Shown here in pieces: positions 10,253 through 21,381 of a stretch of 24,000 bases of DNA; position 1 is the first letter of the stretch; each line of letters starts with the position of its first letter. Origin of the DNA: Methanofollis sp. W23 (lineage in GTDB: Archaea; Halobacteriota; Methanomicrobia; Methanomicrobiales; Methanofollaceae); contig NZ_JAGGMN010000001.1 in NCBI RefSeq assembly GCF_017875325.1, positions 1,484,140 through 1,508,139 of the forward strand. The letters are read 5' to 3'. Made by a program: the position numbers and the translations under genes. The notes beneath the pieces are model-generated. The model did no database searches and was not told the origin of the DNA. It saw only the letters and a list, made by a program, of their open reading frames with translations.

Positions 10253-11119
10253 TCAGTAGATCGGGGTGCCTTCCTTCGCGGTGATGGCGGAGAACCCGGC
10301 CATCAACTGCTTGGTGATCGGGCCGGGGGTACCGGTCCCGATGGTCCGGCCGTCGATGGTGACGATCGGGCCAAGTTCGGCCGCCGTGCCGGTGACAAAG
10401 ACCTCGTCGGCAGTATAGAGGTCGAAGTAGCCGACATCGCGCTCCATCACGGTGAGCCCGAGGGCCGCCGCCGCTTCGAGGACGACATGCCTGGTGACCC
10501 CACGCAGGTTGTTGAGGGTGTGCGGGGTGATGAGGACGCCATCTTTGACCAGGAAGAGGTTGTCGCCCGAGCCCTCGGTGATGTTGCCGTGGGTGTCGAG
10601 GAAGATTGCCTCGTCGCCGCCCTTGTAGTTGGCCTCGATCTTCGCAAGGATGTTGTTGAGATAGTTGAGGCTCTTGACATTCGGCGGGAGAGCGTCGGCG
10701 GCGTTTCTCCTGACCGAGACCGTGACGGCAGTAAGCCCCTTCACGTAGAGGTCGCCGTACATCGCGCCCCACCCGGCGGCGATGATGAAGACCGTCGGGG
10801 TGGCGCAACTCCTGGGGTCCAGGCCCATGTTGCCCTTGCCGCGGGTGACCACCGGCCTGATATAGGCGTCCTTGAGGTCGTTCCTGCGCAGGGTCTCAAG
10901 GAGCGCCTCCTTGAACTCCTCCTTGGAGAGGGGCACCTCAAGGTCGATCGTCTTGGCCGAGTCATAGAGCCGGTCAATGTGCTCGTCCAGTCTGAAGACC
11001 CGGCCATTGTATGCCCGGATCCCCTCAAAGACACCGTCACCGTACAGCAGGCCGTGGTCAAAGACTGAGACCTTCGCCTCCTCCTCGGGGACAAACTCAC
11101 CGTTGAGGTAAATGATCAT
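10253..11119 (-). CDS. ilvE: Branched-chain amino acid aminotransferase (class IV aminotransferase)
   Basis: '[58 protein letters not shown]...' is a textbook short-form IlvE N-terminus. 288 aa. It lies 34 nt downstream of cfbB on the same strand. Confidence 0.92.
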
Positions 11120-11153
11120 GAATTATCTGTTGGCGCGATGTGGGTATAGAAGT

Positions 11154-12542
11154 TTATGGTTCGTTCCGCCGTTCCCTGCACCTGGCGACGAATCCACGGT
11201 ACAGGGCGGCGCTTGCCACCGGGTGGAGATGGGTGTAACTCGCGAGTACCTGGCCTCGGACCGCCCCGTCCTTCCTGCCGGCGATCCCGGTCCCTCTGGA
11301 GAGGCGGTAGGCATAGGTCGTCCCTTCGGCAAGGTCGACCTCAGAGTAATGGAACTCGTGCCCGCGGAACCCCCAGTCCCCGAAGGGACATGCCGGACCG
11401 GCACGCCCCTCGACATAGCCCAGGGTCCGGCGGCCCGGGATAGCGGCGTCGCCAGGGAGGACGCCGCACATCTCGTAGACCTCCTCGTGCTCCCGCCCCT
11501 GCCATCCTGATCGGAGGGTGAGACGGTCGGTGAGGTAGACGAGCCCGCCGCATTCGGCATAGATGGGGACGCCGTCTCCGGCCGCGGCACAGAGTCCTTC
11601 TCGCATCCGGAGATTTTTCTCAAGCCCTTCAGCATAGAGTTCAGGATACCCGCCGCCGAGAATATACCCGTCGGCCTCTGGGAACGAGTCGTGGATCGGG
11701 CTGAAAGGAACGACCTCGGCCCCGAGCGCCCCAAGGAGATCGAAGAGGTCGTGGTAGTAGAAGTTGAAGGCCTCGTCATAGGCGACCGCGACCCTGAGGT
11801 CTGGCGCCTCCTGCACCGGCGCAAAGATCTCCCTGACACGCCCCTGCGGGGTGTACTCGGTCATCAGTCCCTTCAGGGTGTCGAGGTCGATGTATGAGGC
11901 GACCACCTCCTTGATGGCCTCGACCCGTGCCAGGAACTCGTCGCCCTCCTGGCCCTCGCGGTACGGGACCAGCCCGAGGTGGCGCATCGCAAGCCGCATC
12001 CCCTCGTCTTTCGGGACCGCCCCGATCACCGGGAGCCCGCAGTAGTGTTCGATGGCTCTGGTTGTTTTGTCACGGTGACCTTCGGTCCTGATGTTGTTGA
12101 GGATGACGCCGGCGACCCTGACGTCGGGGTCGAATCCGGCATACCCGTTGACGATGGCGGCGGCGCTCCTGGTGATGCTCCTGGCGTCCACGACCAGGAC
12201 CACAGGAAGCCCGAGGGCCTTGGCGACCGAGGCGGTGCTGCCTGCATCGCCGGTGGCCTCGGCCCCCTCGAAGAGCCCCCGCACCCCTTCGACCAGGGCG
12301 AGGTCGGCGCCCTCCGCCCCGTGCTCGAAGACCCCCTGCATCTGGGCCGGAGACATCACATAGGAGTCCAGGTTCCGGCAGGGCCTGCCGGTGACCGCCG
12401 TGAGATATGACGGGTCGATGTAGTCCATCGCCACCTTGTAGGTCTGGACCGAGGCCTCCCGCGAGAGGAGAGCGGCGAGGGCGAGGGTAATGCTCGTCTT
12501 CCCGCTGCCAGACCGGTCGCCTGAGATGAGGAGGGCTTTCAT
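11154..12542 (-). CDS. cfbB: Ni-sirohydrochlorin a,c-diamide synthase (CbiA/CobB-family amidotransferase)
   Basis: 'MKALLISGDRSGSGKTSITLALAALL' is the CbiA-type P-loop. The C-terminal GATase-like part contains 'YAECGGLVYL'. 462 aa. The cfbB assignment (rather than cobamide cbiA) rests on clustering with the NflD-like, MurD-like and small CbiX genes. Confidence 0.85.
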   Translation of the reverse strand: MKALLISGDRSGSGKTSITLALAALLSREASVQTYKVAMDYIDPSYLTAVTGRPCRNLDSYVMSPAQMQGVFEHGAEGADLALVEGVRGLFEGAEATGDAGSTASVAKALGLPVVLVVDARSITRSAAAIVNGYAGFDPDVRVAGVILNNIRTEGHRDKTTRAIEHYCGLPVIGAVPKDEGMRLAMRHLGLVPYREGQEGDEFLARVEAIKEVVASYIDLDTLKGLMTEYTPQGRVREIFAPVQEAPDLRVAVAYDEAFNFYYHDLFDLLGALGAEVVPFSPIHDSFPEADGYILGGGYPELYAEGLEKNLRMREGLCAAAGDGVPIYAECGGLVYLTDRLTLRSGWQGREHEEVYEMCGVLPGDAAIPGRRTLGYVEGRAGPACPFGDWGFRGHEFHYSEVDLAEGTTYAYRLSRGTGIAGRKDGAVRGQVLASYTHLHPVASAALYRGFVARCRERRNEP

Positions 12543-12546
12543 CAGT

Positions 12547-13617
12547 TCACTCTCCGTTCATGCTCCGCAACACCGCGCCGAACTCGCTCTCCACGATCTC
12601 CCTCACTCCGAGAGTCTTGGGGTGGAGGTCGACCTCGACGACGACCATGGCATGGCCGATCGCCTTGAGGGGCGCGACCTGGCGCGGGCCGTTGGTGACC
12701 GAGATCGTCTCGATACCGTCGGTGTATTCTGGCGGGACGGCATGGGGCACCCCGACCAGGAAGGCGAAGTCTGGTTTGATCTCCTGGATCCGTTCGCCGA
12801 CGGCCTCGCCGTTCTCCCCATACTCGTCGAGGGCGCCGAGGAGTGCGGGGTCGATCCCCCGCTCTTTCATCCCGGCCAGGATACGAGCGGCGTCGGCCCG
12901 CACCTTGGGGAGGCCGCGGTCTTCGAGGTTGGCAAGATAGGTGATCTCGGCCTCAGGGCAGACCTCGTGGAGGGCGCAGAGTTCGTCGGCGAACATGTAC
13001 GCCGTCTCTTTCTTTGCATTGAGCACCGCGACCCCCTTCTTCCCGCTCCTCGCAAGGTCGAGGAGACGATGGGCGGCACGGTGCTTGAGGTCGCCCCGTG
13101 AAGGCTCGATGTACGGCTGCGAGGCCGCACCCCTGAGACGTTCCACCTGGTTTGCCGCGGCGAGGAGACGGCGCTGCCGTTCGAGTTCGTCCCCGGCGAT
13201 CCACCCGGCCCGTGCGGCGGGCTCGAGGACCGCAAGGACGCCGTCGATGTTCTCCCTGAACCCGGCATGGATCTCGACCCCGATGGTCGGGGTCTCCACC
13301 CCTGAGCCTTCGATGGCCGCCTCGATGTCCTCGCCGATGATCATCGAGACACAGGTCCCGATCACTGCCATCCGCGTCGGAGAGAACTCTGCCTCGGCGT
13401 ACCTGAGCACCCGCTCCAGAACACCCTGGCCACCGAAGATGAACTCGTTCTCGCCGAGCGAGGTGGTCAGGACCCGCATCCCGTCTTCTTCAAGGAGGCG
13501 GGCATGCTTGAACGAGCACCCCGACGGGCCGTGGAGGATGGCCACCTCCACTCCCAGGTCGCGGGCGGTGTACAGGGAGGCGACGATCGAACTTGGCCGT
13601 GGTTGTACGTATTCCAT
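12547..13617 (-). CDS. cfbD: Ni-sirohydrochlorin a,c-diamide reductive cyclase, NifD/K-like subunit (NflD)
   Basis: Nitrogenase component-1-like: 'VASLYTARDLGVEVAILHGPSGCSFKHARLLEEDGMRVLTTSLGENEFIFGG'. Start at ATG 13617 ('MEYVQPRPSS'), 1 nt after the cfbE stop. The ORF-track extension to 13656 overlaps cfbE. Confidence 0.85.
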   Translation of the reverse strand: MEYVQPRPSSIVASLYTARDLGVEVAILHGPSGCSFKHARLLEEDGMRVLTTSLGENEFIFGGQGVLERVLRYAEAEFSPTRMAVIGTCVSMIIGEDIEAAIEGSGVETPTIGVEIHAGFRENIDGVLAVLEPAARAGWIAGDELERQRRLLAAANQVERLRGAASQPYIEPSRGDLKHRAAHRLLDLARSGKKGVAVLNAKKETAYMFADELCALHEVCPEAEITYLANLEDRGLPKVRADAARILAGMKERGIDPALLGALDEYGENGEAVGERIQEIKPDFAFLVGVPHAVPPEYTDGIETISVTNGPRQVAPLKAIGHAMVVVEVDLHPKTLGVREIVESEFGAVLRSMNGE

Positions 13618-13618
13618 T

Positions 13619-14800
13619 CTATCTCCATGTCTTGACGGCAAGGACAATAGTCCCACCGTTGCTCATCTGCTCTGCTCTGCGGATCCCGTCCTCCAGGTCG
13701 GTGGCCGTCACGGCGTCGGGAGGGAGGTCGGCTGCATCGTAGTCGCCGACGACGACCAGGCGGTCTGGGCTGATCGCCGCCACCGCCGCCTGCACCTCCG
13801 CAGCCGGGAAGCCCTCGCAGATGGTCTGGCCTTCGGTCCCGATCACCAGGACAAGAGGGGCGCCGCCCCCCAGGGCCCTGGCGTACGCCGCGGCATCAAG
13901 GGCGACCTCGCGGCAGGCACCGCTGTTGGCGCAGTCGACGGTGAGGCCGCCAGCCTCACGCGAGACCGCCATCCTGCCTGGCAGGGGGGCGAAGGTCGCA
14001 AGCCCGGCCGGGTCGTACCCGAGCAGGCAGGCCGCGGCGGCGGCCAGGTGCAGCGGTGTCCGGTAGCCCCGCAGGGCAAGGAGGGGGTTCTCGAATGAAC
14101 CCTGCACTTTTCCGTACTGGTAGGTGCAGCGCGTCCCTTCGACGGCGGCGACCTCGTCGGCGACGACGCCGCCGGGCACACGCACCCCTTTGGGGACGAG
14201 CACCAGTGGCGCTGCCGCAAGGGAGCGGACCTTCTCGGTAAGAGCCCGCTTCTTCCCGGCGGCACAGGGATAGTCGTCGCCCGAGGTGAGGATAGCAAGG
14301 TCGCCTGCGCCAGAGACTCCAAGAGATTCTTCAGCGACGAGCCAGCCCTCGCACGCGACCGCCTCTTTTGCCGCGGGCAGGACCGAAGCAGGGGTGATCG
14401 AGCGTCTCCAGAGACGTTGACGCGCAGGAAAAAGAGAAGTTTCCATCGAGGTGTGAAGCACCCCACGGCCGCCGAGCACATGTGCCAGGGCCGTCGCCGT
14501 GGTAGTCTTCCCCCTCGCCCCTGTGACCTCGACCATCATCCTTGGGCGGCATGGGGCAAGGAGGCGGCGGACCGCCTCATGATGCGTGACGCACTCCGGC
14601 GCCCGCCCGAGCAGGGGATGATCGGGATCGAGATGGACCGGGGCGACGACCAGGTCATAGGACCGTCGCGCCGCCTCGGCAGCGGGGATCCCGCCCTCGC
14701 CGCGGTAGACATCCACCGCATCGACGGTGTGTCCGGCCTTCTCAAGCGCCCCCGCAATCTCGGTGCCGCCGTGGATCGTGTCGAGGACAAGAATTTTCAT
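13619..14800 (-). CDS. cfbE: Coenzyme F430 synthetase (Mur-ligase family)
   Basis: 'MKILVLDTIHGGTEIAGALEKAGHTVDAVDVYRG' followed by the Mur-ligase P-loop 'VTGARGKTTTATALAHVL'. 393 aa. Its start abuts the cfbA stop (14800/14801). Confidence 0.85.
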   Translation of the reverse strand: MKILVLDTIHGGTEIAGALEKAGHTVDAVDVYRGEGGIPAAEAARRSYDLVVAPVHLDPDHPLLGRAPECVTHHEAVRRLLAPCRPRMMVEVTGARGKTTTATALAHVLGGRGVLHTSMETSLFPARQRLWRRSITPASVLPAAKEAVACEGWLVAEESLGVSGAGDLAILTSGDDYPCAAGKKRALTEKVRSLAAAPLVLVPKGVRVPGGVVADEVAAVEGTRCTYQYGKVQGSFENPLLALRGYRTPLHLAAAAACLLGYDPAGLATFAPLPGRMAVSREAGGLTVDCANSGACREVALDAAAYARALGGGAPLVLVIGTEGQTICEGFPAAEVQAAVAAISPDRLVVVGDYDAADLPPDAVTATDLEDGIRRAEQMSNGGTIVLAVKTWR

Positions 14801-15205
14801 TCAGGCGTCTGCGTTGATTGCTTCCTCGGCGTTCTTGACCATCAGGTCGGCCAGGAGGGGGTCGGGCCCGATGGGGCCGGCATAGACCAGCGGGATCTCG
14901 CCGCCGTTGTGGGCAAAGGTGCCTCTGGTCCCGCCCTCAGGCAGGCCGAGAAGGGCCGGGATGTCCTTGAGGATGTGAACGCCCTTTGCAAGGAAGAGCG
15001 GGACGACGACGAGCATCTCGATATCATCGTCCTTGAAGAGGTTCAGGGCGTCCTCCACCGTCGGGGTGTTCATGGACATGAATCCTGGCCTGACAAGGTA
15101 TTCGGGGTGTTTTTCGGCGATATGGGCGGCGGTCTTCTCGATGAGTTCCTTGTTGTAGGAGAGTTTGCTGCCGTGTCCGACGAGTAGTAATCCCTTTCGT
15201 GACAT
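14801..15205 (-). CDS. cfbA: Sirohydrochlorin nickelochelatase (small CbiX-type chelatase)
   Basis: 'GLLLVGHGSKLSYNKELIEKTAAHIAEKH...MLVVVPLFLAKGVHILKDIPALLGL' is CbiX(S)-like. 134 aa. It is the first gene of the packed cfbA-E-D-B-ilvE string. Confidence 0.88.
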   Translation of the reverse strand: MSRKGLLLVGHGSKLSYNKELIEKTAAHIAEKHPEYLVRPGFMSMNTPTVEDALNLFKDDDIEMLVVVPLFLAKGVHILKDIPALLGLPEGGTRGTFAHNGGEIPLVYAGPIGPDPLLADLMVKNAEEAINADA

Positions 15206-15228
15206 ACACTATTGAGTACTACGTTCGT

Positions 15229-15240
15229 AGCATAAATGTA
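15229..15240 (-). promoter_or_regulatory. TATA-box-like element upstream of cfbA
   Basis: The minus strand reads 'tacatttatg' (plus-strand ataaa at 15233-15237), ~28-32 nt upstream of ATG 15205. This is compatible with a leaderless or very short-leader transcript. Confidence 0.4.
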
Positions 15241-15293
15241 TTACTGATTGGCTTTTCGGCCGCCCCTGGCGCAGTACATTTCAATACTCGGCT

Positions 15294-16250
15294 CTGGAGA
15301 ATTCAAAATGAACTTGGGGTCACACAAATCTCTTGACCCGCCGCCCCCGCATATCCTCTCCCCATAAGGGGTCTGGATGAAATGAGGAGAGAGGCTGGAA
15401 GACAGGGAGACGATTGCTCATTGTGTATGGAGTCACGCCTGGCGCGGGTTTTTCGATCTTCGAGGTCATCCCAAAACTCTCCCGTCCTCCTCCCCCCTGA
15501 TGATGGCGATGGATGAGAATGAAGAGAGTCCTCGGTCCTGATGACCGATCAAGCCAAGGGCGCTTATGGGATATGCTCCATGAAAGTGATCCAGAATATC
15601 GGCCCGTGAGATTCTGATGAAGGGCATATCTCAAAACTCTCCTGGGATGAACATTCCCTTGAACCAGAGTGCTTCCTTCCAGAAATTCAAAACTCCCTTC
15701 TCGACCGGGGTGCGTGCCGCCCCCCCTGTCCTCCCACTGATGAAGATAGGTGAAGGATTGCGTCCCGTTTTCATGGTTTTTTCTCTGCCTTCCCGGCCCT
15801 TTCGCCATCCTGGAGGTCCGGGGGCGGCGGCCCGGATGCGATCGTTCGAGGAAGGCATGGCAGACCAGACCGATCGACGTGCTGCCCCACATAGAGACTA
15901 ATGAATGTTTTCCTGGTTTCTTTCGCCGGGGGGAGACCCTGCGAAACCCCCGCGACGAAGATAGAGGTCAGGTGGCAGGACCCCAGCGAAAAGATAGAAG
16001 AAGGCGATGAATGGATGTTCTCGCTACGAAGACAGGAGAGTTTGACACCATCATCTTTCTTTATCTCTGGCAGAGGGGAAACTCAGGAGAGTTCTTGGAT
16101 GACCTCGATTTCAACCTGGATATCGTCCACAGCATCAAGAATTCCCCTGACCCCCGCCATTCCCGCAGGTCGATGCGGCCACGGAGTTCCCGTCGAGTGC
16201 CGCGAGAGATCGTGCCGGAAGAACCGGGCCTACCTGATGCCCTGAAAATA
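15294..16250. repeat. Intergenic repeat family, locus R6 (two arrays in opposite orientation, tail to tail)
   Basis: Plus-oriented part: 15294-15327 'ctggagaattcaaaatgaacttggggtcacacaa' resembles 21456-21490, and a C-like module lies at 15344-15376. Minus-oriented part: 15783-15796 is rc 'ccgggaaggcagag', rc(15712-15726) is identical to 114-128, and rc(15671-15693) matches 149-171 at 20/23. rc(15920-15990) gives 'ctatcttcgtcgcgggggtttcgcagggtctccccccggcg' (C module). Beyond ~16110 similarity is weak. Confidence 0.75.
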
Positions 16251-16392
16251 GGTGCACCCCTCCAGGAAAGGGGGATATCAGGCGCGATGACCTCAAGCAC
16301 TGCACCTCGCGTGAACGTACCGGCGAGACGTACGCCCTCAACGACCAGTAACAAAAGGGCTTTGTGATGGCAGTGACAACATTTCTGGAAGC

Positions 16393-17529
16393 ATGATCGA
16401 GTGGTACGAGCGCTGCGGATTGATTCTCAACGGCCAGGTGGTGAAGACCCCGGTCGTCATTGCTTCGATGGCAGGGATCACCGACGCCGGGTATGTGCTG
16501 GCCAGAAAAGAGCATATCGGTGCCGCGTTCATTGGGGGATACTCCATCGACGCGGAGACGATGGAGGCGAGCCGTGCAATGGCGGCGGCCGGGCGGGACG
16601 AGTTTGTGTACGATGACCCCGTCGCCGAACTGAAGACGCAGACTGAGGCCCTTGAAGGGTGCGGAGTTCTCGTCGGGCTGAACCTGCGGGGGAGCACGCC
16701 TGCGTCGTACGCGGCGGTCGCCAGGGAGATCGGGGACGGCGTGGTCTATGAGGTCGACGCCCACTGCCGCCAGCCCCAGATGACGGCGCTCGGGTGCGGC
16801 GAGGCCCTGCTGCACGAGCCGCACCGGATCGTCGAGATCGTCGAGGCGCTCAAGGCCCAGGGTGTGACCGTCTCGGTGAAGATCCGTGCCGGGGTCGCGG
16901 ACGACGACGCCGCACTTGCCCGTCTCCTCTGGAAGGCCGGGGCCGACATCCTCCACGTGGACCTGATGGACTTTGGCTATGCACGGATCCGCCAGATCAG
17001 GAATGCCTGCCCGTTGCCGCTCATCGCCAACAACTCGATCACCTCGTTCGACCGGGCAATGGACATGTTCGCCCATGGGGCCGACATGGTCTCCCTTGCA
17101 CGACGCTCGGACGAGCGGACCCTGGCCGGGATCGATGCCGCCATCAGGCGGAGGGCCGACGAGGTCGGGTGGTACAACGCCCCCAAACAACTCTGCCGGG
17201 GCGGCGACATCAGGGCGCTCGCCTTCTGTTGTCTGCCGGTGAAGCACTGCCCGCTCATCCCGTTCCTGGAGAAGGTCGGACTCACCAGGGAGGAGTATAT
17301 GGACCTAAAGGCCAGGGCGGTCACGGGCACGCCCCTTGCTGAGGGGAAGATGACCTGCTTTGGGAGTATGGCCTGGTGCTGCAAGTCGAGTTCACCGTGC
17401 ATGCTGCGCGGGATCGCGGCGAAGACGGCCGGGATCACCGACCAGGAGTATATGCACCTGAAGCGCGATCTCGCCGACAGGATTATGGAGTGCGTCTTTG
17501 ATGAAGTGCCGGAGGAAGACGCGGACTGA
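16393..17529 (+). CDS. NifR3/Dus-like FMN TIM-barrel domain fused to Cys-rich methanogenesis marker domain 9
   Basis: The N-terminal ~250 aa are TIM-barrel-like ('PVVIASMAGITDAGYV...VGLNLRG...YEVDAHCRQPQM...SVKIRAG...ILHVDLMD...ANNSI'). The C-terminal ~110 aa carry 'FCCLPVKHC' (17224-17250) and 'WCCKSSSPC' (17374-17400), with 8 Cys in the core. This matches my recollection of the TIGRFAM marker-9 description (two [WFY]CC..K.C-like motifs, some members NifR3-fused). Confidence 0.8.
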   Translation: MIEWYERCGLILNGQVVKTPVVIASMAGITDAGYVLARKEHIGAAFIGGYSIDAETMEASRAMAAAGRDEFVYDDPVAELKTQTEALEGCGVLVGLNLRGSTPASYAAVAREIGDGVVYEVDAHCRQPQMTALGCGEALLHEPHRIVEIVEALKAQGVTVSVKIRAGVADDDAALARLLWKAGADILHVDLMDFGYARIRQIRNACPLPLIANNSITSFDRAMDMFAHGADMVSLARRSDERTLAGIDAAIRRRADEVGWYNAPKQLCRGGDIRALAFCCLPVKHCPLIPFLEKVGLTREEYMDLKARAVTGTPLAEGKMTCFGSMAWCCKSSSPCMLRGIAAKTAGITDQEYMHLKRDLADRIMECVFDEVPEEDAD

Positions 17530-18322
17530 ACTGGCGCAGCTCGCGATGGCCCTGGAGGTCTCGGCCTCCCCAAAGCCAGGGAACGTGGACCGCGGGCACG
17601 ATTATCCGGACACCCGCCTGGAACATTTCCTGGCCTCCACGATCTTTGCAGGCCGTGCCCTCGCCCTGGCCGAGAAGGGGGAGCCCGGGATCGGCGAGGT
17701 GATCCTGGAAGCGGTAAAGGATACCAACTGCCATGCCGGCGGGAACACACACTTTGGGGCGTTCATCCTGCTCGTCCCGCTGGTCCGGGGCGGCGGGGTC
17801 GAGGGGGCCATTCGGGAGGTCGGGGCCACCACAGTCGAGGACGCGGTGGCCTTCTACCAGGCCTTCGGGGCGACGCAGGTGCGGGTGCTGGAGCGCGACG
17901 CCCTGGACGTGAACGATCCCGCGGCCATTCAAGCCCTGCGTGATGAAGGGATGACGCTCTATGACGTGATGGCCTACTCGGCACCGCGGGACATGGTGGC
18001 GCGGGAGTGGACGAACGGGTTTGCCCTCTCGCAGGAGACGAGGGACCTCCTCTTTGCCCATGGGTCAGGGAAGGAGGCGATCGTGCAGACGTTCCTCGAT
18101 CTCCTTGCAACCCACCCCGACACTTTTGTCGCGAAGAAGTTTGGTGTGGAGAGAGCCGCCCGGACGATGGCGCGGGCCGGCGAGGTGAAGGCAGGAAAGG
18201 TCTCGCTCGAGGACTTCGACGAGGAGTGCCTGGCCGCCGGGGTGAACCCTGGTTCGCTGGCCGACATCATGATCGCGGGGATCTATCTCGCGCTCAATGA
18301 GGGGTGGGAATGGGATTCCTGA
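17498..18322 (+). CDS. CitG/MdcB-like triphosphoribosyl-dephospho-CoA synthase family protein
   Basis: 'ELAQLAMALEVSASPKPGNVDRGHDYPDTRLEHFLAS' matches the CitG-family N-terminal motif (E...PKPG-x-VD...H.D). 274 aa. It overlaps the upstream gene by 32 nt; ATG 17546 is an alternative start. Confidence 0.78.
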   Translation: MMKCRRKTRTELAQLAMALEVSASPKPGNVDRGHDYPDTRLEHFLASTIFAGRALALAEKGEPGIGEVILEAVKDTNCHAGGNTHFGAFILLVPLVRGGGVEGAIREVGATTVEDAVAFYQAFGATQVRVLERDALDVNDPAAIQALRDEGMTLYDVMAYSAPRDMVAREWTNGFALSQETRDLLFAHGSGKEAIVQTFLDLLATHPDTFVAKKFGVERAARTMARAGEVKAGKVSLEDFDEECLAAGVNPGSLADIMIAGIYLALNEGWEWDS

Positions 18323-18879
18323 GAGAGGGGATCAACGAGGTGATCGCCACGACCCGCGGCAATGCCGCACCGATGGGGATCATCTCCCGCAACGGCACCC
18401 TCTCGATGGTCCTCTTCAAGGGTTCCCACACCGAGGCGAATATCAGGCGGGACGGATGGGTGGTCGCCAACCTCACCGCCGACCCGGTGGTCTGGGTGCG
18501 GACGGCCTTCGAGGACCTGCCGCAGAAAGACCTGGTCGCCGAGGTGGTGGCGGGCAGGGAGGTCGAGCGTCTCCGCACCTGCGAGGCATGGGCGGCATTT
18601 GCCGTGGAGGTGAAGCACGAGACCGCCGAGAAGATCCTGGTCGCCCTCACCCCGCTCGCCGCCCCGGTCGCCCTGGAGAAGGGAGTCTGCCCGGTGAACC
18701 GCGGGTTTGCCGGGATCATCGAGGCGACGGTGCATGCCACCAGGTTTGTCCGCACCCGCGATCCAGGTCTTCGGGCCCTCATCGACCACCACCTCGCTCT
18801 GGTGCAGCGCTGCGGTGGACCGCGGGAGTGGGAGGCCGCACGGGTGCTGGAAGGGTTCATCTCTGAGGAAAAGGAGTGA
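18304..18879 (+). CDS. DUF447-family protein (flavin-reductase-like split barrel)
   Basis: 'GINEVIATTRGNAAPMGIISRNGTLSMVLFKGSHTEANIRRDGWVVANL' fits my recollection of DUF447 N-termini (GI.E.I.TT...NaAPMG). It overlaps the CitG-like gene by 19 nt. Confidence 0.7.
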   Translation: MGMGFLREGINEVIATTRGNAAPMGIISRNGTLSMVLFKGSHTEANIRRDGWVVANLTADPVVWVRTAFEDLPQKDLVAEVVAGREVERLRTCEAWAAFAVEVKHETAEKILVALTPLAAPVALEKGVCPVNRGFAGIIEATVHATRFVRTRDPGLRALIDHHLALVQRCGGPREWEAARVLEGFISEEKE

Positions 18880-18882
18880 GGG

Positions 18883-19155
18883 TCACGGGAATACGGAATA
18901 GATCTCTTCTCTGGATTTTACGCGGTAGAAGATCAGGGCACCTGAACTGGTGAGTCTGCATCCAATCCTGTATCTTCCCACCCGTATCCGGTAGAAATCC
19001 GAATGCCCTTTCATCCTTTTGAAATCAAAATCAGTGTAGAGATCGTTGGAGTCTGGTATAGCAGAAAATACCAGTTCTTCTATATTTTTTCTGAGGGGAA
19101 TCGGCACCTTTGTGAGATCTTTTAAAAATGTCTTTTTATAGAGGCATTGAACCAT
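18883..19155 (-). CDS. RelE/ParE-family type II toxin
   Basis: 'KKTFLKDLTKVP...RKNIEELVFSAI...FKRMKGHSDFYRIRVGRYRIGCRLTSSGALIFYRVKSREEIY' matches the RelE/ParE hallmark (L.G....YRiRvGdYRi.y.......i..v.hR.e.Y). The start lies 1 nt after the antitoxin stop. The region is low-GC. Confidence 0.85.
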   Translation of the reverse strand: MVQCLYKKTFLKDLTKVPIPLRKNIEELVFSAIPDSNDLYTDFDFKRMKGHSDFYRIRVGRYRIGCRLTSSGALIFYRVKSREEIYSVFP

Positions 19156-19156
19156 T

Positions 19157-19360
19157 TCAAACTGATTCCTTCATTTTTTTATAATATTCCCGCGCCTCTG
19201 CACGGTCGAGGGGCTCATCATCATCTGCCTCCTCAATGTAGTGTGAAAGGCCGTAATCCTCAATGATGGACTCGATCCGTTCAAAGGTAGAGATATCGAT
19301 GATGACGCCGACCGGGGTATTGTCTTCGGACATCACATACTGACGTTTAATATCAAGCAT
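19157..19360 (-). CDS. Putative antitoxin of the RelE/ParE module
   Basis: 67 aa: 'MLDIKRQYVMSEDNTPVGVIIDISTFERIESIIEDYGLSHYIEEADDDEPLDRAEAREYYKKMKESV'. It is small and acidic, sits immediately upstream of the toxin, and is tightly coupled to it. Start at ATG 19360; ATG 19333 (M10) is an alternative. The longer ORF to 19537 overlaps the neighbouring gene. Confidence 0.7.
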   Translation of the reverse strand: MLDIKRQYVMSEDNTPVGVIIDISTFERIESIIEDYGLSHYIEEADDDEPLDRAEAREYYKKMKESV

Positions 19361-19395
19361 AAGATTCTCCCCGATACACTCTTTCGCGTCTGTTG

Positions 19396-19403
19396 ATATA
19401 AAT
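19396..19403 (-). promoter_or_regulatory. TATA-box-like element for the toxin-antitoxin pair
   Basis: The minus strand reads 'catttatatcaac' (plus-strand atataaat at 19396-19403), 36-43 nt upstream of ATG 19360. Confidence 0.4.
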
Positions 19404-19422
19404 GATGACCAGTCTCCCCCCA

Positions 19423-21381
19423 CTAAAACGGGAAGACCGCATACTGGATGTACCAGAGATATTGCACCAGGGGGATCCAGAAATGATACCCCTCCCAGCA
19501 GAGGGTGGCAAAGCGGAAGTCCACCACCGCTCCCCATGCAAGGGTGAAGAGCATCAGGACCGGGAGGAGGGAGGCAAGGGCTATGGGCCGGGTCTTCCCT
19601 GCGGCCGTGAGGAAGTAGAGGAGAGCGGCAAGGGCGAGGAAGAGATAGGTGAGGGGCATGAGAAATGCCACCTGGCCGCTTATCTCTCCCCCTGAGAGAA
19701 GTTGGAGGACGAGGTAGATGAGGGGGAGGTCGATGACGATCAGCCAGAAGAGGGTTTTCAAGGAGCGCGCGATCTCGACCTCGCCAAACCCGACATACCT
19801 GAGGGCATAGGTCCCGAGCACGACCAGCGGGAGATAGATAGGGCTGAGATAGCGCATGTCAGGGACGATCCCCTGACTCCCTCCCATCCAGGGGATGGAC
19901 TTGAGATAGGCGGCCAGGACGATGAGAACGGTAAGGGCGAAGAAGGCGATGAGTCGGCCGTCACGAGAGGAGAAGGAAGAGCGTCCGGAGGTGTAGAGTT
20001 GGTAGCCGACCGGGACGAGGAGGAGCAGGGCGAAAAAGCCGAAAGAGGAGACCTGGAAGATCCCGGCCGAGCCTGAGTACGAGGGATCGAAGAAGGTGCC
20101 GTAAAATCCTGAGAGGAGATCGCCGGCCGGCGGGGCATAGTGTCTGGCCACCGTCGCCCTGAGGGTGCCGGCCGCAGACGGGAGGCCTGAAGGGGCGGCG
20201 GCGCCGTACCCGGCCACCCAGGGGAGGAGGAGGGGGTGTCCGGTGAGGCCGAGGTTGTTCACAAAGAGCGGGAGGGCCCCGAGCGGGACGCCCGATATGG
20301 CGAGGGCGGTCTTTCCTGACTCGCGCCACCCCTTCCTGACCGAGAGGAGGAGCGCAAAGAGCGCAAACCCCACGAGGAGCGAGGGCCCGAGTTCTGGCCT
20401 GGCCCATGCGGTCCACCCGACGGCGATGAACGCGGAGAAGAGATAGAGCGGGCGGTCTCTGGTGAGGGAGAGGACGAAGCAGTAGATCGCGATCGTAAAG
20501 AAGAGCATCACCAGCATGTGGTCCTTGGCATTCCCGGACCAGAAGAGATAGGACGACGAGGCAAGTGTTGCCACGAGGCCAAAGATCCCCCAGCGGACCG
20601 ACCCGAAGACCTCCAGGAAGATATGATAGACGAGGAGGGCAAAGAGGGCGAAGGCGATAGTGTTGGTGAAGACGATGGCCGCGACCTCAGGATAGACGCT
20701 GACGTCAGCGGGGTGCACCCCGCGCACAAACCAGAAGGGGTGGTACAGGGCCATGTTGAGGACAAAGAGGATGCCCCAGGAGATGATGGCGGCATAGGTC
20801 CAGGGGATCCCATGCCAGCGTGCGTATCTGGGGTACCACCACTCGATCATGAGGACGACGGCAAGGAGGAGTGCCGACCAGAGGAGGATGACAAAGAGGC
20901 GGAAGGAGTCGTCGAAGAGATCGAAGAAGTAGTATGCAGGGAGGGAGAGGGTAGGGAGTGCCAGGGTGTAGCAGAGACAGTCGTGGTGCGAGGCAGCATA
21001 GGCGGCAGAACCGTACGGGTGATACCCGTACAGGAGGTCGTCGCCCTCGACCAGGTGGTTCACCTGGTCTGCGGAGATCCATTCGTCGGTGATGTAGATG
21101 GCCGGGTACGAGATGGTGAGGGCGAGGAGAAAGGAGAGAAGGAGGATCACGAGGTCCAATTTCAGGGCATGCGTCCTCTCTGTCACCTCGCCGTCCCCTT
21201 CTTCAGGGGGACTGCAGGGGAGATCACGTGAATAGGATTCTCTGCATGTTGTATCTCCCTCCATACTCTCGATCACACCGTCTATGATTCTATGCTCATC
21301 TCCTGGAGGATATATACTATTTTTGATATTCTCCCGCCCTCCATGAATGAAATCAGAGTCCAGGAGAGAAAGGGAGGGCAC
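19423..21381 (-). CDS. Large polytopic membrane protein, possibly a GT-C-fold (ArnT/PMT-like) glycosyltransferase
   Basis: 652 aa with more than 12 hydrophobic helices and high GC3. The first extracytoplasmic loop after TM1 carries the acidic 'YITDEWISADQVNHLVEGDD', reminiscent of GT-C loop-1 D/E motifs. The functional call is tentative, and the start is uncertain (ATG 21381 or an internal Met). Confidence 0.8.
   Translation of the reverse strand: MPSLSLLDSDFIHGGRENIKNSIYPPGDEHRIIDGVIESMEGDTTCRESYSRDLPCSPPEEGDGEVTERTHALKLDLVILLLSFLLALTISYPAIYITDEWISADQVNHLVEGDDLLYGYHPYGSAAYAASHHDCLCYTLALPTLSLPAYYFFDLFDDSFRLFVILLWSALLLAVVLMIEWWYPRYARWHGIPWTYAAIISWGILFVLNMALYHPFWFVRGVHPADVSVYPEVAAIVFTNTIAFALFALLVYHIFLEVFGSVRWGIFGLVATLASSSYLFWSGNAKDHMLVMLFFTIAIYCFVLSLTRDRPLYLFSAFIAVGWTAWARPELGPSLLVGFALFALLLSVRKGWRESGKTALAISGVPLGALPLFVNNLGLTGHPLLLPWVAGYGAAAPSGLPSAAGTLRATVARHYAPPAGDLLSGFYGTFFDPSYSGSAGIFQVSSFGFFALLLLVPVGYQLYTSGRSSFSSRDGRLIAFFALTVLIVLAAYLKSIPWMGGSQGIVPDMRYLSPIYLPLVVLGTYALRYVGFGEVEIARSLKTLFWLIVIDLPLIYLVLQLLSGGEISGQVAFLMPLTYLFLALAALLYFLTAAGKTRPIALASLLPVLMLFTLAWGAVVDFRFATLCWEGYHFWIPLVQYLWYIQYAVFPF

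Follow-up and report, generated by a model that had tools for sequence, protein, structure and literature searches.

Why does a flavin-type barrel fused to a methanogen-specific domain share an operon with a CitG-like protein and a DUF447 protein, and do the three serve a single pathway? The question is raised by a 24,000-nucleotide (nt) stretch of the genome of Methanofollis sp. W23 (NCBI RefSeq assembly GCF_017875325.1, contig NZ_JAGGMN010000001.1, positions 1,484,140 to 1,508,139 of the forward strand; termed the window here, and numbered from its first letter), in which three overlapping open reading frames (ORFs) occupy positions 16393-18879 of the + strand, as an initial annotation had indicated. 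That annotation had taken the overlaps as a sign of shared function and had placed all three genes in the biosynthesis of tetrahydromethanopterin (H4MPT). The present analysis supports this interpretation in part: the trio consists of two functional modules in one operon, with gene 1 on one side and genes 2 and 3 on the other. For the more specific reading, in which gene 1 is a module for coenzyme F420, genes 2 and 3 are a module for methanopterin, and the operon is the leftover of an older string of cofactor genes, we regard the case for and the case against as evenly balanced. The features of the operon are as follows, with lengths in amino acids (aa) and the evidence in parentheses; FMN stands for flavin mononucleotide, TIM for triosephosphate isomerase, Dus for dihydrouridine synthase, DHOD for dihydroorotate dehydrogenase and DPD for dihydropyrimidine dehydrogenase.

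16393..17529, + strand: gene 1, MJ0144-like FMN TIM barrel fused to methanogenesis marker 9, 378 aa (ORF, Pfam and NCBIfam matches)
16393..17157, + strand: barrel domain of gene 1, residues 1-255, Dus/DHOD/DPD fold class (TIGR00736, Foldseek, family alignment)
16762..16773, + strand: H-C-R-Q, residues 124-127, core of the motif E-[IL]-[ND]-A-H-C-R-Q (alignment)
17158..17529, + strand: marker 9 domain of gene 1, residues 256-378, small and helical (TIGR03277)
17194..17400, + strand: eight-cysteine core of marker 9, C268-x10-CC-x5-C286 and C322-x6-CC-x5-C336 (translation)
17501..18322, + strand: gene 2, CitG-like, likely start ATG 17501, the ORF opening with TTG 17498 (PF01874, start region)
18310..18879, + strand: gene 3, DUF447, likely start ATG 18310, the ORF opening with GTG 18304 (DUF447_N and DUF447_C, start region)

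The start of gene 1 is backed by N-termini that are conserved among its relatives. In genes 2 and 3, a GGAG-type motif precedes each in-frame ATG and makes these starts more likely than the upstream TTG and GTG; the resulting 189-aa form of gene 3 agrees with annotated DUF447 relatives. The overlaps of 32 and 19 nt given in the initial annotation hold for the longest ORFs, and do not hold for the likelier ATG starts, with which genes 1 and 2 overlap by 29 nt and genes 2 and 3 by 13 nt. All four of its family assignments (marker 9, CitG, DUF447 and Dus) were confirmed by profile searches (TIGR03277, PF01874, PF04289 and PF01207).

Gene Neighborhoods of the Barrel and of the CitG-Like/DUF447 Pair

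The observations that bear on the question concern gene families, the fusion of barrel and marker 9, gene order and co-occurrence. In a sample of 121 genomes of the phylum Halobacteriota plus named controls, searched with each family, marker 9 scored above its cut-off in 56 of the 121 genomes, by whole families, and among the named controls matched Methanocaldococcus jannaschii and Methanosarcina acetivorans only; its proposed restriction to methanogens is thereby upheld. The order barrel-marker 9, CitG-like gene, DUF447 gene is kept in all 56 marker-9 genomes, so that the trio is tightly linked, to a degree beyond chance, across the methanogens of this phylum and the operon can be considered real and old. 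The gap between marker 9 and the CitG-like gene stays below approximately 130 nt in all but one of these genomes; likewise, marker 9 is part of a barrel-fused frame of approximately 380 aa in all but one of them, the exception being a contaminated metagenome-assembled genome with a 157-aa frame. The CitG-like and DUF447 genes range more widely (118/121 and 117/121 genomes, respectively); they adjoin each other in nearly all genomes of the sample, including most non-methanogens, and both match in the controls Haloferax volcanii and Sulfolobus acidocaldarius. Families f13, f19 and f21 have a barrel without marker 9 upstream of this pair, and f24 has one in its vicinity.

The barrel keeps company with F420 genes. 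Its direct upstream neighbor is cofD (TIGR01819) in the non-methanogen families f13 (8/8), f21 (5/5) and f24 (3/3) and in the methanogen family f10 (5/5), where the full string reads cofD / barrel-marker 9 / CitG-like / DUF447 / dmrX. On a Natrinema megaplasmid, the single haloarchaeal match of a plasmid tblastn search, cofD overlaps a 253-aa barrel gene annotated as "dihydropyrimidine dehydrogenase", with CitG and DUF447 genes 2 kb downstream; a metagenome contig has the order cofD-barrel-cofC, and Methanosphaera the order cofE-cofD-GTP cyclohydrolase III-barrel-marker 9. A barrel-motif scan of one genome per species recovered 583 relatives, and the best 80 of the 583 loci (Methanobacteriaceae, six Asgard lineages, Thermoproteota and others) were scanned with hidden Markov models (HMMs) built from sequences gathered in this analysis. 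Among these best 80 loci, cofD was located at most 2.2 kb upstream of the barrel and on the same strand in 63 of the 66 with enough flanking sequence, the loci without it belonging to Archaeoglobaceae and one uncultured archaeon; cofE was present in 51/57, GTP cyclohydrolase III directly upstream of the barrel in 58/72 (all Methanobacteriota), and marker 9 at most 3 kb downstream in 49/60. The order is cofE-cofD-barrel-cofC in the Asgard lineages (Frey-, Jord-, Borr-, Sif-, Heimdall- and Promethearchaeota) and in one Thermoproteote; in Methanobacteriaceae the barrel is embedded in cofE-cofD-(arfA)-barrel.

The same HMM scan found CitG, DUF447 or DmrX near the barrel in 0/80 loci outside the Halobacteriota. 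The two genomes of genus g37 (99% complete) keep cofD-barrel in the absence of the CitG-like and DUF447 genes and of mptG, the gene for ribofuranosylaminobenzene 5'-phosphate (RFAP) synthase. Among the named controls, barrel and CofD both match in M. jannaschii, H. volcanii and M. acetivorans and neither in S. acidocaldarius; the barrel model also cross-matches two bacterial Dus genomes. Since the barrel tracks cofD and not CitG/DUF447 outside the phylum, the overlapping genes of Methanofollis do not mean one shared pathway; the earlier argument from overlap to function, and with it the assignment of barrel and marker 9 to the H4MPT pathway, could not be sustained. As a separate observation on CofD, a second, sub-threshold paralogue (140-238 bits) adjoins the true cofD in several Methanomicrobiales (genomes G002, G034, G082, G102 and G117 of family f2; G097, G107 and G112 of family f6).

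The earlier proposal fared better for the CitG-like/DUF447 pair, which follows methanopterin-type biosynthesis in several observations. The gene for dihydromethanopterin reductase DmrX (TIGR02700) lies directly 3' of DUF447 in families f9 (4/4), f10 (5/5), f16 and f7 (5/14). MptG (TIGR00144) is present in 119/121 genomes; the two genomes without it are those of g37, the sole complete genomes that have neither the CitG-like nor the DUF447 gene. MptG and DUF447 match the same four named controls, and CitG-like proteins match these four plus Escherichia coli; S. acidocaldarius has matches to MptG, CitG-like and DUF447 proteins, and none to CofD or the barrel. The methylotroph island mch-orf5-orf7-fae corresponds in Methylomonas to mch, a glutamate ligase gene and a gene annotated as "triphosphoribosyl-dephospho-CoA synthase"; therefore, orf7 of the methylotroph H4MPT islands is the CitG-like gene. 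The neighbors of DUF447 were uninformative in Methanobacterium, Methanosphaera, a Freyarchaeote and a Thermoproteote (RadA, an aminoimidazole ribonucleotide synthase-like protein, adenine deaminase and a glutamine amidotransferase), and among the other-phylum genomes viewed, CitG and DUF447 adjoined in a Methanopyri genome only.

Two side observations concern the same genes. In Methanosphaera (region L128:5145-8230), the DUF447 gene is flanked by one gene for adenine deaminase and one for a PabA/TrpG-like glutamine amidotransferase of class I; since CitG-type chemistry yields adenine as by-product, the position of the deaminase beside DUF447 may or may not be meaningful. The MptG of the Methanofollis genome (C1:152288-153832; L130:1489-3033) carries an N-terminal fusion to a chorismate pyruvate-lyase-like domain (PF01947), and the open frames in most Methanomicrobiales, with lengths of 513-562 aa, point to this fusion as well; it would be in keeping with formation of the arylamine via 4-hydroxybenzoate.

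Domains, Motifs and Surroundings of the Operon

In the barrel of gene 1, the Dus profile PF01207 matches residues 92-238 (E 3e-10, Pfam), covering profile positions 54-216 of 311 only, and the scores against the Dus equivalogs fall below the respective cut-offs (DusB 44.9 vs. 293, DusC 26.6 vs. 395, DusA 20.8 vs. 269 bits). Its best family match is TIGR00736, the MJ0144/NifR3-related family entitled "MJ0144 family RNA dihydrouridine synthase-like" in NCBIfam, which matches residues 26-237 with 123.3 bits, under the cut-off of 218.7; for comparison, the cofD-linked Methanobacterium barrel scores 265.7 and an Asgard barrel 201.6 bits. Since gene 1 has H-C-R-Q in common with the Methanobacterium and Asgard barrels, it is a diverged relative of TIGR00736 and not an equivalog. 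In an alignment of 34 barrels, H and C of this motif are invariant, R and Q nearly so, several arginines are conserved, and the motif extends to E-[IL]-N-A-H-C-R-Q-P-E; Cys125 appears to occupy the position of the catalytic cysteine of Dus and DHOD (Dus motif N-x-x-C). The C-terminal helical tRNA-binding domain of Dus enzymes has marker 9 in its place in gene 1, and is absent in barrel-only relatives of approximately 250 aa.

The AlphaFold model of the fusion protein (predicted local distance difference test, pLDDT, 92.7; predicted template modeling score, pTM, 0.91) retrieved DusB and DusC, class 1B and class 2 DHOD (DHOD B and DHODH) and DPD as top Foldseek matches in the PDB, all of them FMN barrels whose substrates are reduced or oxidized at a C=C bond beside a carbonyl. 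Gene 1 resembles Dus and the MJ0144 family in its predicted FMN-type TIM barrel, with a cysteine at what appears to be the Dus catalytic position, yet it stays below all equivalog cut-offs and differs from them in its distinctive H-C-R-Q-P-E motif and conserved arginines, and in its F420/methanopterin gene context. Class 1B DHOD (PyrD/PyrK) and DPD resemble it in barrel fold and in the C=C redox chemistry proposed for it, and their FMN barrel is fed through Fe-S centers; however, the cysteine-rich module of gene 1 has no homology with PyrK or the ferredoxin-like domains of DPD, and its substrate is probably no pyrimidine. The barrel family has 338 representatives at E values up to 0.001 among 1.84 billion proteins, in fused, barrel-only and marker-9-only forms; word-based homologue searches returned close Methanomicrobiales relatives or fragments only.

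Marker 9 is matched by TIGR03277 over residues 259-366 (148.4 bits vs. a curated cut-off of 96.2; 109-residue domain). Its eight core cysteines (268, 279, 280, 286, 322, 329, 330 and 336), which include the two [WFY]-C-C-x5-C motifs FCCLPVKHC and WCCKSSSPC pointed out in the initial annotation, are invariant in an alignment of 29 diverse marker-9 sequences, both fused and stand-alone; the core is presumed to bind a metal or Fe-S center. Modeled alone, marker 9 forms a small helical domain (pLDDT 90.6). In a wide VIA-align search, Z did not exceed 4.2; the structures retrieved were helical regulators of a generic kind and helical subdomains of ABC proteins, with no usable match among them, a result that does not prove a new fold. 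Literature searches on marker 9/TIGR03277, on MJ0144, and on DUF447 or CitG together with methanopterin returned no functional study in the library that was searched. Sub-threshold marker-9 paralogues were detected in four genomes of the sample. Two stand-alone proteins of this kind (L016:1493-1993 and L012:2580-3035; 65-73 bits) have all eight cysteines; one is encoded 3' of mmp7 (DUF2113) and mcrC, the other between an M24 peptidase gene with a LarC-type nickel-insertion gene and a radical S-adenosylmethionine (SAM) gene.

Gene 2 is spanned in full by the CitG profile PF01874 (E 4.4e-65, profile positions 2-284 of 284), yet it reaches 20-32 bits against the CitG and MdcB equivalogs with their cut-offs of 272-477; the best of these scores, 31.8 bits vs. 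477, is confined to the C-terminal 80 residues. The nearest PDB entry, 3h9p, is an uncharacterized archaeal structural-genomics protein. Partner proteins of the canonical role, CitX (PF03802) and the citrate-lyase acyl carrier protein (ACP; PF06857), had no match in the 99.7%-complete Methanofollis genome (MdcG was not searched), and both matched the E. coli control; with CitX and a citrate-lyase-type ACP both missing from the genome, service to citrate lyase or malonate decarboxylase was rejected as a role for gene 2. The comparison with CitG and MdcB (EC 2.4.2.52, ATP:dephospho-CoA 5-triphosphoribosyl transferase) would thus extend to the full-length PF01874 domain and to a proposed alpha-glycosidic chemistry from ATP, and not to the partner genes, in place of which the gene 2 family co-occurs with MptG and dmrX. 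Gene 3 matches PF04289 (DUF447_N, E 2.6e-26) and PF20766 (DUF447_C, E 9.8e-15). Its PDB relatives, the structural-genomics proteins 2nr4, 2iml and 2ptf (E 2e-26 to 4e-11), belong to the same family and have no assigned reaction; we take these structures to have been deposited with bound FMN. An ESM Atlas search with DUF447 returned archaeal DUF447 clusters only.

Beyond the operon, the window contains a string of F430 genes:

10253-15205, - strand: F430 string cfbA-cfbE-cfbD-cfbB-like and a class IV aminotransferase gene (profile matches)

This string lies 5' of the operon and consists of cfbA (CbiX), cfbE (NF033197), cfbD (TIGR03282) and a cfbB-like amidotransferase gene; the divergent arrangement of an F430 operon and the trio was thus correctly recognized at the outset. 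A NifH-like cfbC was not found in the 24,000-nt window. The spacer between the divergent cfb and marker-9 operons (15206-16392) is non-coding and, at 1.2 kb, unusually long. On the other side, a toxin-antitoxin pair (ParE-like, 90 aa, and RelB-like, 126 aa, respectively) is encoded at 18883-19537 on the - strand, convergent with the operon and 3 nt from the DUF447 stop codon.

Candidate Reactions and Competing Explanations

The substrates and reactions proposed for the three proteins are all inferred from context. In F420 biosynthesis, the lactate kinase CofB has never been identified (PMC6450877; PMC8498797); archaeal CofC and CofD prefer 2-phospholactate and also accept the intermediate derived from phosphoenolpyruvate (PEP; PMC8764529); and archaeal CofE does not have the reductase domain of FbiB, a dehydro-F420-0 reductase encoded "elsewhere in the genome" having been proposed for archaea (Bashiri et al., 2019; PMC6450877). 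A cysteine-bearing FMN barrel encoded between cofD and cofC is an obvious candidate for such an enolpyruvyl reduction, of either PEP or dehydro-F420-0. The fold class, judged by its Foldseek relatives, suits the reduction of a C=C bond that has a carboxyl or carbonyl neighbor, and the barrel has invariant or near-invariant histidine, cysteine and several arginine residues. Gene 1 may therefore be viewed as an FMN-dependent TIM-barrel reductase of the Dus/DHOD class that would supply the reduced lactyl side chain of coenzyme F420, by reducing the enolpyruvyl C=C of PEP to yield 2-phospho-L-lactate, or that of dehydro-F420-0; reduced FMN would provide the hydride and the conserved Cys125 the proton. 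Marker 9 would carry metal or Fe-S centers on its eight cysteines and pass low-potential electrons to the flavin, as a methanogen-specific input module comparable to the Fe-S supply of the barrels in DPD and class 1B DHOD. That barrel and marker 9 together form an archaeal F420 lactyl enzyme (a PEP-to-2-phospho-L-lactate reductase or a dehydro-F420-0 reductase), with marker 9 as a new eight-cysteine metal-cluster domain, appears possible to us, at somewhat less than even probability.

Gene 1 would then be an archaeal equivalent, without homology, of the reductase domain at the C-terminus of bacterial FbiB (PMC6450877), and its proposed role is that of the FbiB domain, an FMN-dependent reduction of the F420 enolpyruvyl side chain. 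The FbiB system, with its equivalents of cofC (fbiD), cofD (fbiA) and cofE (fbiB-N), brings together exactly the same four functions as the Asgard string cofE-cofD-barrel-cofC. The likeness does not go beyond the proposed function and the gene context: FbiB has a nitroreductase fold fused to CofE, whereas gene 1 has a TIM barrel that is not fused to CofE and that in methanogens comes with an eight-cysteine domain.

Genes 2 and 3 would act on the side chain of a methanopterin-type cofactor. We know of no genes assigned to the side-chain steps that follow RFAP synthase and the dihydropteroate-synthase-like enzyme. The CitG-like enzyme could use ATP as ribosyl donor, release adenine and place an alpha-linked ribose 5-phosphate on the ribitol, with inversion; DUF447, as a putative small FMN protein, could catalyze a flavin-dependent reduction, most simply that of ribofuranosyl-aminobenzene to aminophenyl-ribitol. 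The older string from which the present operon would remain could have had the order cofD / barrel / CitG-like / DUF447 / dmrX.

Several observations weigh against this assignment of an F420 module and a methanopterin module. In representatives of the CofD-bearing families f11, f15, f16, f17 and f22 (96-99% complete), the barrel was not found beyond weak, generic TIM-barrel matches; it is therefore no universal F420 enzyme. In a likely Archaeoglobaceae family the barrel is unlinked to cofD, and in Methanomicrobiales, including the Methanofollis genome, cofD is located approximately 800 kb away and the barrel overlaps the CitG-like gene, an arrangement that fits a shared pathway too. The 80 loci are dominated by Methanobacteriaceae and thus represent few independent lineages, in about five large groups; the joint loss of the MptG, CitG-like and DUF447 genes happened once in evolution and counts as one event. 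Among the non-methanogens with the pair are haloarchaeal families (the H. volcanii control and Natrinema), and haloarchaea are reported to use folate and not methanopterin (PMC8305020). As to marker 9, a Foldseek search against the PDB gave no structural relatives below E 3, and in Methanobacteriaceae the gene is translationally coupled to atwA and not to the barrel, which keeps a role related to methyl-coenzyme M reductase (MCR) alive for this domain.

If all three proteins acted instead on the unassigned side-chain steps of H4MPT, with barrel and marker 9 performing an Fe-S-assisted flavin reduction of the ribofuranosyl group, the overlap of the three genes in every marker-9 genome of the sample and the position of dmrX 3' of DUF447 in several families would be readily explained; to our knowledge, this pathway also requires one reduction to which no enzyme has been assigned. 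We nevertheless consider this unlikely, given that none of the 80 other-phylum loci has CitG, DUF447 or DmrX near the barrel and cofD precedes it there, that g37 retains the barrel beside cofD in genomes without MptG, CitG-like and DUF447 genes, and that S. acidocaldarius has these three and no barrel match; furthermore, DUF447 is itself a flavoprotein candidate for the ribofuranosyl reduction. The frequent position of GTP cyclohydrolase III directly upstream of the barrel raises another possibility, namely that the substrate is a pyrimidine on the way to the head group of deazaflavin or riboflavin and not the lactyl side chain; Dus, DHOD and DPD, to which the barrel is closest in fold, all carry out a reduction or oxidation at C5=C6 of pyrimidines. 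This neighbor is confined to Methanobacteriota, however; haloarchaeal-type families, Asgard archaea and Thermoproteota have the barrel beside or between cofD, cofC and cofE without head-group genes. We know of no C5=C6 redox step in the head-group route, and rate this explanation as very unlikely.

The coupling of marker 9 to atwA, mentioned above, is at the same time an argument for linking marker 9 and its fused barrel to MCR activation or F430 metabolism and not to F420. In 32 Methanobacteriaceae loci (including Methanobacterium ferruginis, L062:7871-9944), the conserved string is cofE-cofD-arfA-barrel-atwA-marker 9-sirC-like-hemA, where atwA encodes MCR activation component A2 (TIGR03269, 888 bits) and the stand-alone marker 9, of 158 aa, starts 1-26 nt past the atwA stop codon (at most 5 nt in 30/32). 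The weak marker-9-like paralogues 3' of mmp7-mcrC or beside a LarC-like gene, the divergent cfbA-E-D-B string of the window and the restriction of marker 9 to methanogens point in the same direction. Against this, the 56 Halobacteriota genomes with marker 9 all have it fused to the barrel, with a single exception, and in Methanosphaera the two adjoin; atwA is located approximately 760 kb away in the Methanofollis genome; loci retrieved from four further methanogen families showed no adjacency to cfb genes; and barrels without marker 9 occur inside the F420 strings of non-methanogens. A complex prediction for MCR component A2 and the stand-alone Methanobacterium marker 9 scored 0.00 and carries no weight either way; on balance, we accord the MCR/F430 connection a low probability, on a par with that of the pyrimidine substrate. 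Least probable of all, and hardly credible in our view, is the function that the database name implies, modification of tRNA or rRNA by an enzyme akin to RNA dihydrouridine synthases: the Pfam Dus match, the title of TIGR00736 and the presence of DusB and DusC among the top fold matches speak for it, but the DusA/B/C equivalog scores of 21-45 bits fall far short of cut-offs of 269-395, the Pfam profile is matched in its middle part only, the tRNA-binding domain is replaced by marker 9 or missing, and the conserved neighbors are cofactor genes, not translation genes.

Meaning for Cofactor Biosynthesis in Methanogens

F420 and methanopterin, two central cofactors of methanogens, still have gaps in their sets of biosynthetic enzymes. 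With the Methanofollis operon and related loci, specific candidates can be put forward for both: a single small protein family for the gap in F420 biosynthesis, and two families for that in methanopterin biosynthesis. If the reading as an F420 module next to a methanopterin module is true, a function would be assigned to one of the remaining "methanogenesis marker" proteins, the F420 pathway would be complete for heterologous production, and new targets for methane mitigation would become available.

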